Of a stretch of DNA of 22,484 nt, positions 10,671 through 12,407 are shown one piece after another. The DNA is from Candidatus Babeliales bacterium (GTDB lineage Bacteria > Babelota > Babeliae > Babelales > Vermiphilaceae). The stretch's first letter is position 1; the number at the start of each line of letters is the position of its first letter. Made by a program: the position numbers and the translations under genes. The stretch lies in NCBI GenBank assembly GCA_044451405.1, contig JBIOKB010000017.1:1-22484 (forward strand), written 5' to 3'. The notes beneath the pieces were generated by a model. That model saw only the letters and a list, made by a program, of their open reading frames with translations. It made no database searches and was not told the origin of the DNA.

Positions 10671-11102
10671 ATGAGCAAAGATGTATTTGTGCGGCACGAT
10701 GTTGTTATCCCAAGTCATGAACTTGATATATCAACAAGTAGATCCGGTGGTGCCGGTGGACAACACGTTAATAAAACCGACACACGCATTACTGTACGCT
10801 GGAATGTACGCACAACACGCGCATTAACCGATGAACAAAAAGAGCGCGTACTACAAAAATTAGCAAACCGTCTGACAAACGATGGCGAGCTTATTATTCA
10901 CAACAGTGCATCACGCTCACAACAACAAAATAGAGAACACGCACTGGAACAACTTGCACAGGAGATCAGACAGGCATTACATGTTCCTAAAAAAAGAATG
11001 AAAACGCGCATAGCAAAACACACAAAAGAAGCACGTCTGGAGAAAAAAACACAACGAAGTGAATTAAAAAAAAGCAGAAGTAAAAAAATATTCTACGAAT
11101 AA
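10671..11102 (+). CDS. arfB: Alternative ribosome rescue peptidyl-tRNA hydrolase ArfB (YaeJ)
   Basis: SRSGGAGGQHVNKT (GGQ motif), SRSQQQNR and a basic tail RLEKK...KKSR. Confidence 0.95.
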   Translation: MSKDVFVRHDVVIPSHELDISTSRSGGAGGQHVNKTDTRITVRWNVRTTRALTDEQKERVLQKLANRLTNDGELIIHNSASRSQQQNREHALEQLAQEIRQALHVPKKRMKTRIAKHTKEARLEKKTQRSELKKSRSKKIFYE

Positions 11103-11111
11103 GGAGATTTT

Positions 11112-11681
11112 ATGGACACCCTATTTATTGCAGAAGTACATCCTCTTTCTGTTAAACAATTAAAAGACAATTGGGGATGGTATTTAGCACTTGGCATCAG
11201 TTTAATCGCTTTAGGTACGTTAGCAGTATTCTACACCTGGACGGCTACGCTCGTTTCTGTGGTTTATCTTGGATTTTTGTTACTCACCTTGGGTGTTTTT
11301 GAAGCGGTTAAATCATGGAAAATAAATCGCTGGAGCACTTTTTTTCTCCATATGTTTTTGAGTGTGCTGTATGGTGTAAGCGGTGCGTTTCTTATTGCTG
11401 ATCCTACTATTAACGCCATAACACTTACTTTGCTCCTCTCCATATTCTTTGTTGTGGCTGGTGTAATAAAAGTAGTAGTGGCCTGGACACGTCTCGTACC
11501 ACACAAATTCTGGCTTACACTAAATGGTATTTTAACTGCCATCCTTGGTATTCTCATCTGGTACCAATGGCCTGAATCTTCGTTCTGGGCGGTGGGCATG
11601 CTCGTGGGCATTAATATGATCATTACCGGCTGGACGTGGGTTATGCTATCAATGGTGGCAAAGAATGTTAAAGGTGCTTAA
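11112..11681 (+). CDS. HdeD/DUF308 family membrane protein
   Basis: NWGWYLALGI, six hydrophobic helices, WPESSFWAVGMLVGINMIITGW. Confidence 0.88.
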   Translation: MDTLFIAEVHPLSVKQLKDNWGWYLALGISLIALGTLAVFYTWTATLVSVVYLGFLLLTLGVFEAVKSWKINRWSTFFLHMFLSVLYGVSGAFLIADPTINAITLTLLLSIFFVVAGVIKVVVAWTRLVPHKFWLTLNGILTAILGILIWYQWPESSFWAVGMLVGINMIITGWTWVMLSMVAKNVKGA

Positions 11682-11698
11682 TATACCAAGGAGATTCT

Positions 11699-12001
11699 AT
11701 GCCTATCCCATTTACACAAGATCTTATTGCATCAAAAAAACCAGTTGTTATTAAAGCATTTGCTACGTGGTGTCCGCATTGCAAAAAAATGGCTCCACTT
11801 TTTGAAGAGCTAGAAAAAGAACTTTCACACTATATTTTTGCCGAATTTGATGTAGATAAACACGTCGAATTCACTGAGCAATTTCATATTGAATCACTCC
11901 CCACTTTTATCTTTATAAAAAATGGTAATGAAGTGGGTCGCACCATCGGCGAAATGCCAAAAGATGAGTTAAAAGAAGCAATCGAACACTATCTAAAATG
12001 A
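11699..12001 (+). CDS. Thioredoxin-family protein, WCPHC active site, no signal peptide
   Basis: FATWCPHCKKMAP, FDVD, IESLPTF and KNGNEV motifs; AAGGAG RBS. Confidence 0.93.
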   Translation: MPIPFTQDLIASKKPVVIKAFATWCPHCKKMAPLFEELEKELSHYIFAEFDVDKHVEFTEQFHIESLPTFIFIKNGNEVGRTIGEMPKDELKEAIEHYLK

Positions 12002-12014
12002 TGTAAGGAATACT

Positions 12015-12407
12015 ATGATGACACTCATTATGATCGTTGCAGCAATTGGGCTGTGTATTTCACTATATACCTATTCAGTTGAACGCAAAATTAAAACTAA
12101 CGCACAGTATAAGCCAGCCTGTGATCTATCAGATCGCATTTCTTGCACAAAACCGATGTTGAGCGAATACGCAAACATGTTTTATTTCTCAAATGCATTT
12201 ATAGGCACATCATATTATGTATTAATCATACTTCTTGCTGCATTCAATATGCTTAACCTGCTCTTTATTGCCGCAAGCGCAGCATGTTTATTTTCTCTCT
12301 TTTTGGCGTATATTTTGTATGTAAAAATCAAAGCGTTCTGCATACTCTGCACATCAATATATCTTGTGAATTTTATTATTCTGGGATTAGTACTGTATAG
12401 CAGATAA
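12015..12407 (+). CDS. Vitamin K epoxide reductase (VKOR) family protein
   Basis: Four TM helices; loop Cys pair ACDLSDRISC; conserved Ser (MLSEY); active-site FCILC. Confidence 0.93.
   Translation: MMTLIMIVAAIGLCISLYTYSVERKIKTNAQYKPACDLSDRISCTKPMLSEYANMFYFSNAFIGTSYYVLIILLAAFNMLNLLFIAASAACLFSLFLAYILYVKIKAFCILCTSIYLVNFIILGLVLYSR

Follow-up and report, generated by a model that had tools for sequence, protein, structure and literature searches.

A leaderless CPHC thioredoxin gene directly upstream of a VKOR gene in Dependentiae: a possible cytoplasm-facing thiol-to-quinone redox pair

VKORs of bacteria, plants and mammals are outward-facing, and inward-facing forms are confined to a few crenarchaeal paralogues, as stated in the available part of Collins et al. 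2026. The same part of that paper reports that the inward VKOR of Aeropyrum pernix, combined with a leaderless DsbA, forms disulfides in the cytoplasm of E. coli (Collins et al. 2026). In this work we analysed contig JBIOKB010000017.1 of a Dependentiae (Babeliales) bacterium, a stretch of 22,484 nt referred to below as the window, in which the gene of a leaderless thioredoxin (Trx) with a CPHC active site lies directly upstream of the gene of a minimal VKOR. The window is one of 89 contigs of a metagenome-assembled genome (MAG) of ~1.02 Mb, which is 95.7% complete and has a G+C content of 40%; the bacterium is tiny and amoeba-associated. We tentatively propose, with a confidence a little short of an even chance, that the two proteins form a dedicated thiol-to-quinone redox pair, in which a cytoplasm-facing VKOR would relay electrons from the thioredoxin to a quinone.

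The logic proposed here is that of the A. pernix VKORi, which has, as far as the available text of Collins et al. 2026 goes, four cytoplasmic cysteines and a leaderless CPHC Trx-fold partner. That system is archaeal and its topology was measured, whereas the Babeliales pair is bacterial and its topology is a prediction. The original description of the archaeal enzyme is reportedly that of Hibender et al. 2017. A giant-virus VKOR that clusters with the archaeal VKORi has a one-residue spacer between its loop cysteines (available part of Collins et al. 2026), unlike the CX7C spacing of the Babeliales VKOR. Vertebrate VKORC1 and VKOR-like proteins, together with giant-virus VKORs, are similar to the Babeliales protein in the CX7C loop, in a cluster of lysine and arginine residues (K/R) behind the first transmembrane segment (TM1) and in the CXXC motif at the start of TM4. 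They reside, however, in the membrane of the endoplasmic reticulum with their cysteines lumenal, whereas the Babeliales VKOR belongs to an inner membrane, is almost tail-less and has a leaderless thioredoxin encoded upstream. The Synechococcus VKOR-Trx fusion (3kp9) and the actinobacterial VKOR with DsbA/MdbA share with our pair the four-cysteine core, a Trx-fold partner that is either fused or encoded alongside, and electron transfer to a quinone; their partners are exported or fused after a fifth helix, which places them outside, whereas the Babeliales partner is separate, leaderless and encoded upstream. The thioredoxin also resembles E. coli DsbA in its fold and in CPHC, which we take to be the DsbA active-site motif, but it is a plain 100-aa thioredoxin with no leader and no DSBA domain match. 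A VKOR beside an MdbA-like oxidoreductase is reported from bacteria of the candidate phyla radiation, not from Dependentiae, in the available part of Meheust et al. 2019. The accessible portion of a preprint on MauE uses an AlphaFold model of the Vermiphilus VKOR as a structural illustration only, and Dependentiae are not mentioned in the available part of the giant-virus VKOR paper (Collins et al. 2026). A full-text literature search, covering main texts, found no study of any Dependentiae VKOR or of its topology.

The two genes and their functional parts are located in the window as follows.

11688 to 11693, plus strand: Shine-Dalgarno-like aaggag, 5 nt 5' of the thioredoxin ATG (sequence read)
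11699 to 12001, plus strand: leaderless thioredoxin of 100 aa, member of a C(P/S)HC paralogue clade (PF00085 with E 4e-25, clade alignment, motif counts)
11768 to 11782, plus strand: W-C-P-H-C codons (codons 24-28), the DsbA-type active-site motif (sequence read, pattern match)
12002 to 12014, plus strand: 13-bp intergenic spacer with a Shine-Dalgarno-like aagga at 12005-12009, too short for a terminator (sequence read)
12015 to 12407, plus strand: minimal four-helix VKOR of 130 aa, the sole VKOR match of the genome (PF07884 with E 1e-25)
12084 to 12095, plus strand: R24-K25-I26-K27 codons, the K/R cluster right behind TM1 (K25 conserved in at least 90%)
12120 to 12146, plus strand: loop cysteine pair C36...C44, CX7C (invariant in relatives, aligned with the vertebrate VKOR CX7C)
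12324 to 12332, plus strand: K104-I105-K106 codons, in the short turn preceding the CXXC (sequence read; the family mean for loop 3 is 1.77 K/R over 90 sequences)
12339 to 12350, plus strand: C109-I-L-C112, the CXXC on the quinone side, where TM4 begins (invariant in relatives)

The thioredoxin matched PF00085 with 88.2 bits (cut-off 23.5), and its Atlas model, with a predicted local distance difference test (pLDDT) value of 0.90, gave a TM-score of 0.94 to thioredoxins. No match to DSBA (PF01323) or Thioredoxin_4 (PF13462) was obtained at E ≤0.01, and CPHC is its sole DsbA feature. An in-frame stop lies nine codons 5' of the ATG and therefore leaves no room for an encoded signal peptide. The genome also encodes a housekeeping CGPC TrxA on another contig, and the CPHC protein is a separate paralogue. 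The leaderless C(P/S)HC clade, with proteins of 100-111 aa, was found in 9 of 261 Dependentiae genomes, which are distributed over four families as listed here; a tenth match, in G142, turned out to be an ordinary CGPC TrxA and not a member of the clade.

f1: G000 (the window genome), G153, G120
f8: G058, G163, G203, G210
f2: G181
f18: G232

In a large protein collection the clade comprises 33 members, with the motif CPHC in 30, CSHC in two and CHYC in one, and 31 of the 33, of 92-103 aa, have no N-terminal hydrophobic stretch. C25, C28 and P68 of the cis-proline loop are invariant in the clade alignment. The residue six positions before the first active-site cysteine, presumably the equivalent of E. 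coli Asp26 with its role in reductase chemistry, is Lys in 26 of the 33 members and Asp in only two.

VKOR matched PF07884 with 90.8 bits (cut-off 27.5) over model positions 2-133 of 134. It has four hydrophobic segments, and comparison of its Atlas model with VKOR models yielded TM-scores of 0.91-0.98. C36, C44, C109 and C112 are invariant in an alignment of 14 sequences, as are N60 and Y116, presumably the counterparts of the quinone-binding Asn and Tyr of the vertebrate structures. Quinone-dependent thiol oxidation is the predicted activity of the protein. The closest solved structures are those of vertebrate VKORs (6wv9, E 9e-11; 6wv3, E 1e-5), whereas the Synechococcus enzyme (3kp9) was matched only with E 0.05. 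The related loci come from Dependentiae MAGs, Vermiphilus pyriformis among them, and one close relative is assigned to Candidatus Babeliales; in total, VKOR is present in 63 of 201 sampled Dependentiae genomes. A search for longer forms yielded no Trx-fused relative and a single match, whose fusion to an alpha/beta-hydrolase domain probably reflects an error in gene calling; the viral contigs of IMG/VR contained no relative, and a scan of metagenomes gave just three loci, each of the VKOR-DoxX type. In a quick and poorly resolved tree, all Trx-linked VKORs fall within one group of 26 rows with a Shimodaira-Hasegawa-like approximate likelihood ratio (SH-aLRT) support of 83, a grouping that is no more than suggestive.

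A strong asymmetry was found in the charges of VKOR. Loop 1, which holds the CX7C pair, has six K/R (R24, K25, K27, K32, R41 and K46) and the loop preceding the CXXC two (K104 and K106), whereas the N-terminus (MM) and the TM2-TM3 turn have none and the C-terminus has only R130, resulting in 8 K/R on the catalytic side versus 1 on the opposite side. These are exactly the counts of an earlier sequence-only reading of the locus, which was also right about a CPHC thioredoxin without a signal peptide and about its distance of 13 bp to VKOR. The charge set was extended to 90 distinct Dependentiae VKORs (60 search sequences, 29 open reading frames (ORFs) from sampled loci and the window gene); in 12 rows where the longest ORF runs on well upstream, the N-terminal count was limited to the four residues directly preceding TM1. 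A mean of 7.9 K/R (range 5-10) falls on the catalytic side, which is made up of loops 1 and 3, and 1.06 (0-3) on the other side, and the catalytic side holds more in 90 of 90 sequences. The short loops weigh most, with means of 1.77 in loop 3 and 0.28 in loop 2, and the N-termini consist of 2-3 nearly uncharged residues. The bias is genuine and stands out in a membrane protein of a bacterium, and it is a property of the family, not of the window gene in particular. A proteome-wide check of the positive-inside rule with a crude helix finder gave a majority fraction of 0.67 versus a null of 0.60 and is too noisy for use.

The distribution of the two genes links them. VKOR occurs in 8 of the 9 genomes with a C(P/S)HC thioredoxin, versus 63 of 201 in the phylum sample. 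In G210 a leaderless WCPHC thioredoxin lies 10 bp upstream of VKOR, with identities to the window proteins of 56% (Trx) and 63% (VKOR), so that G000 (f1) and G210 (f8) show the same gene order and a spacer of 10-13 bp between unrelated flanks. In addition, VKOR and Trx matches shared an identical longest-contig size in seven cases, versus 0.085 expected from local density, although the seven include G153, whose two genes are known to lie apart. Some of the contigs measure only 1122, 1850 and 3994 nt, and Trx and VKOR must therefore sit close together there; the matching sizes point to adjacency on at least three small metagenome contigs. The conservation of the pair, suggested as a check by the sequence-only reading, held for G000 and G210 and presumably for the contigs of 1122, 1850 and 3994 nt, and failed at 29 other VKOR loci and in six genomes that hold the genes apart. 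A read-through Trx-VKOR fusion was rejected, as the frames are offset by +1 in both G000 and G210 and as a Trx fused to the N-terminus of VKOR would lie opposite the catalytic loops.

Since the thioredoxin has no leader, a direct partnership with VKOR requires that VKOR face the cytoplasm. The dedicated paralogue, the co-occurrence, the tight adjacency and the charge bias fit such a direct partnership, and we propose the following relay. VKOR would insert with its N-terminus out, which would bring the K/R-rich loops, the CX7C pair and the CXXC to the cytoplasmic face of the inner membrane. The leaderless CPHC thioredoxin would pass two electrons to the loop cysteines, from where they would move to the CXXC and on to a host-derived quinone, and the thioredoxin would end up oxidised. 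A host origin of the quinone is assumed because the bacterium appears to make none: UbiA/MenA-type prenyltransferase, like cytochrome bd and haem-copper oxidase, was not found in the 95.7%-complete MAG by searches whose positive controls succeeded in 6 to 14 of 14 reference genomes, although a missing match in a MAG of this completeness does not prove absence. The identities of the genes, the catalytic residues, the missing leader, the distribution of charges, the co-occurrence and the repeated adjacency are shown by the sequences; how VKOR is oriented, whether it binds the thioredoxin, which way the electrons move and which quinone takes them are inferred. In effect the pair might act as a quinone reductase that depends on thioredoxin, perhaps with NADPH feeding it via thioredoxin reductase and with membrane quinol as the product, or else supply disulfides locally to a small number of proteins in the cytoplasm. 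The former is favoured because an even-cysteine bias among cytoplasmic proteins is absent and because, with no quinol oxidase detected, respiration would not recycle the quinol, which suits a reductase better than sustained oxidative folding. On a broader scale, Dependentiae may hold the first cytoplasm-facing family of bacterial VKORs, with one sub-lineage paired with a leaderless DsbA-motif thioredoxin and working on host quinone, either as a thiol:quinone oxidoreductase or as the natural counterpart of the engineered cytoplasmic disulfide pathway; this wider claim is a fair way from certain, and we regard it as possible rather than probable.

Several observations weigh against a cytoplasm-facing pair. 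Its prior is low, as no bacterial VKOR is known to be inward-facing. The charge bias may be inherited and not a signal of topology, because the outward vertebrate and giant-virus VKORs share the K/R cluster, and the Dependentiae bias may simply have been passed on within a eukaryote-like branch of the family. In giant-virus VKORs, three K/R stand right behind TM1 in breach of the positive-inside rule, and these proteins are taken to face outwards; in E. coli neither orientation of viral VKORs was functional until the three K/R were deleted and a lysine was added to loop 2 (available part of Collins et al. 2026). The caution of the sequence-only reading that eukaryotic VKORC1 has a basic loop facing the lumen was therefore well placed, and its general premise that bacterial VKORs normally face outwards, with cytoplasm-facing ones in crenarchaea, agrees with the same source. 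On the thioredoxin side, two of the 33 orthologues, the metagenome proteins P0072 and P0092, have a signal-peptide-like N-terminal extension of ~35 residues. G058, which is 94% complete, has the thioredoxin without VKOR, and the two genes lie far apart in G153 (694 kb), G120, G163, G181, G203 and G232. A phmmer search (E 1e-5) over ORFs of ≥50 aa and a Pfam scan of 87 ORFs of ≥90 aa detected no Trx neighbour within 1.5 kb at any of the 29 further VKOR loci sampled from the phylum. VKOR is present in 63 of 201 genomes versus 9 of 261 for the paralogue, and the leaderless thioredoxin is therefore not the general partner of VKOR; the commonest neighbour is DoxX, encoded directly after VKOR at 10 of the 29 loci. 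The cytoplasmic pair put forward by the sequence-only reading is partly supported: it agrees with the charge bias, the leaderless orthologues, the co-occurrence and the recurrent adjacency, and is weakened by the eukaryote-like charge pattern, the loci and genomes without adjacency, the two signal-like orthologues and a weak cysteine-parity signal.

Cysteine parity was examined as an indication of where disulfides form. Genes were called by longest ORF and sorted by a home-made rule for signal peptides in a few genomes, one of which (G049) is represented by 200 kb only.

G000, VKOR present: exported proteins with an even cysteine number 72/129, 1.62% Cys; cytoplasmic 123/295, 1.22% Cys; p 0.008 (Fisher)
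G153, VKOR present: exported 83/167, 1.54% Cys; cytoplasmic 130/310, 1.17% Cys; p 0.12
G018, VKOR absent: exported 57/127, 1.20% Cys; cytoplasmic 141/296, 1.31% Cys; p 0.67
G049 (200 kb), VKOR absent: exported 15/36, 1.54% Cys; cytoplasmic 23/44, 1.35% Cys; p 0.38

The raw counts of even-cysteine proteins in the exported sets are 155 of 296 with VKOR versus 72 of 163 without, where the two VKOR-containing genomes are close relatives. The parity figures give a weak hint of extracytoplasmic disulfides where VKOR is present, which speaks, like the lack of an even-cysteine bias among the cytoplasmic proteins of G000 and G153, against a cytoplasmic pair.

The alternative that survives best is an ordinary outward VKOR, with its N-terminus in and the inherited K/R loop in the periplasm, which would oxidise exported or anchored Trx-fold proteins with host quinone; the leaderless thioredoxin would then be a cytoplasmic protein, co-transcribed for regulation (e.g. 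in oxidative stress), that never contacts VKOR. We consider this arrangement quite conceivable, with the balance tilted somewhat against it. It accords with the outward orientation of bacterial VKORs and with the way in which this sequence type breaks the positive-inside rule (available part of Collins et al. 2026), and vertebrate VKORs, which share the CX7C loop, are the nearest relatives with a solved structure. Possible substrates are encoded in the genome, which has seven Trx-fold matches.

Contig C28: CGPC TrxA
Contig C17 (window): CPHC thioredoxin
Contig C32: CGPC thioredoxin with a signal-like N-terminus
Contig C67, 542-2067, minus strand: two tandem Trx domains (CGPC and CSAC), each behind several N-terminal hydrophobic segments
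Contig C14, 23257-24759, minus strand: TrxR-Trx fusion (CAVC and CPTC) with an N-terminal hydrophobic segment; orthologue at L217, 3638-5107
Window genome (G000): cysteine-less PDI-like protein

The Trx domains on C32 and C67, with their signal or membrane anchors, could serve an outward VKOR, and the CGPC domain of C67 would lie outside the cytoplasm because of its charge distribution. Exported proteins that are richer in cysteine, and more often even in cysteine number, in the two VKOR-containing genomes than in the VKOR-negative G018 would also be accounted for, as would the 29 other sampled VKOR loci without a Trx neighbour and the signal-like extensions of two orthologues. A DsbD-type reductive pathway is present and suits an oxidising periplasm, though DsbD_TM domains, mostly in frames of ~600 aa, are found in 181 of 201 Dependentiae genomes regardless of VKOR; the DsbD-type protein of G000 is divergent (E 8e-12 versus about 1e-50 for most copies of the phylum). 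However, an outward VKOR leaves unexplained why a leaderless DsbA-motif thioredoxin that lacks the presumed Asp26-equivalent Asp should occur in 8 of 9 cases in VKOR-containing genomes, and why it recurs directly upstream of VKOR in divergent lineages. Nearly all K/R would have been kept on a supposedly periplasmic side in 90 of 90 sequences, although few substitutions fixed the viral VKORs in E. coli. No quinol oxidase was found that could turn an oxidative-folding cycle, and the cysteine-parity signal is weak and comes from two closely related VKOR-containing genomes. Finally, DsbB was detected above the cut-off in 0 of 201 Dependentiae genomes, and 138 of the 201 also have no VKOR; the envelope biogenesis of the phylum is therefore not generally dependent on an enzyme of this type. 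In the MAG of the window, neither DsbA (PF01323, PF13462) nor DsbB was found, and a tblastn search with Dependentiae seeds found neither MauE nor DoxX. The TrxR-Trx fusion was rejected as a VKOR-linked relay, since fusions over the whole query length are widespread in the phylum, VKOR-negative genomes included.

Adjacency and co-occurrence might also be historical accidents, in which two accessory genes travel in a shared pool and are functionally unlinked. The genes lie apart in six of the eight genomes that hold both, and the contexts of the thioredoxin gene vary. That the two genes recur in one order and 10-13 bp apart, between unrelated flanks in two families and on several contigs, makes an accident improbable, and both proteins come from families that are known as working partners. 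The least likely arrangement by our estimate is a pair that works on the outer face, either with a thioredoxin that is exported although it lacks the usual leader or in another unorthodox manner, such as a dual-topology VKOR. It would draw on the same linkage evidence as the cytoplasmic relay and on two signal-like orthologues that show the fold can work outside. Against it stand 31 of 33 orthologues in which no type of export signal is visible, and a charge bias whose strength and uniformity argue against dual topology; we know of no precedent, though no search aimed at one was made.

Reports of inward VKORs are limited to date to a few Crenarchaea, and disulfide formation in the bacterial cytoplasm is otherwise an engineered trait, exploited for the production of disulfide-bonded proteins. 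A cytoplasm-facing relay, if true, would widen the known range of thiol-quinone chemistry and show how membrane topology can re-target a redox enzyme. It would supply a ready-made two-gene module for biotechnology, and it would mean host-quinone chemistry in an energy parasite without quinone synthesis or a respiratory chain. Even if VKOR faces outwards, a eukaryote-like VKOR with "inverted" charges in a bacterial membrane probes the limits of the positive-inside rule. A VKOR in an organism without quinone synthesis or quinol oxidase raises the question of the identity of its quinone and the fate of the quinol.

Two further genes precede the pair on the same strand.

10671 to 11681, plus strand: RF-1-domain (ArfB-like) gene at 10671-11102 and DUF308 membrane-protein gene at 11112-11681, both upstream (gaps of 9 and 17 bp)

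These two genes, the thioredoxin and VKOR possibly form one four-gene transcription unit. The arrangement is not conserved elsewhere, the flanks in G210 being different, and a PfkB kinase gene follows VKOR in convergent orientation. No terminator-like site was found between the thioredoxin and VKOR, and counts in a scan for promoters and terminators were at the level of shuffled sequence. Three sequencing runs match the window only as identical pieces of 135-151 nt, one of which lies in VKOR and none of which crosses the Trx-VKOR junction. One piece of 135 nt from a metatranscriptome run is identical to positions 10698-10832 in the ArfB-like gene, where carry-over of DNA is possible.

A methionine is kept at the junction of the extension in P0072 and P0092, which suggests that a start codon was gained upstream; it looks as if these thioredoxins were relocated to another compartment in this way. 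The W-C-P-H-C DNA pattern also matches proteins of ~260-300 aa that start with MK.IWKG.I.FGLV (L043, L045, L047, L048, L050, L060, L061 and L068), and these resemble, in our own reading, Ku-type end-binding proteins.

The neighbours of VKOR in other Dependentiae are of different kinds, of which the DoxX genes are listed first.

About 1900-2400 (3400-3900 in L039): DoxX after VKOR in L012, L014, L018, L020, L023, L027, L029, L032, L034, L039, L040 and others

DoxX beside VKOR was seen again in scans of metagenomes and genome contigs. As a thiol partner of VKOR it was rejected, since 13 VKOR-adjacent DoxX proteins have no invariant cysteine. MauE was found at two and nitroreductase at three of the 29 loci. 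In one genus, represented by two genomes, a MauE homologue with a C-A-C motif and a nitroreductase stand at the VKOR locus (L011, 2647-3189, plus strand; L016, 1150-1647, plus strand); MauE has been put forward as a DsbB-like disulfide generator in the accessible portion of a 2026 preprint. In addition, LigD primase-polymerase and phosphoesterase domains are encoded near VKOR in L031, L032, L034 and L038.

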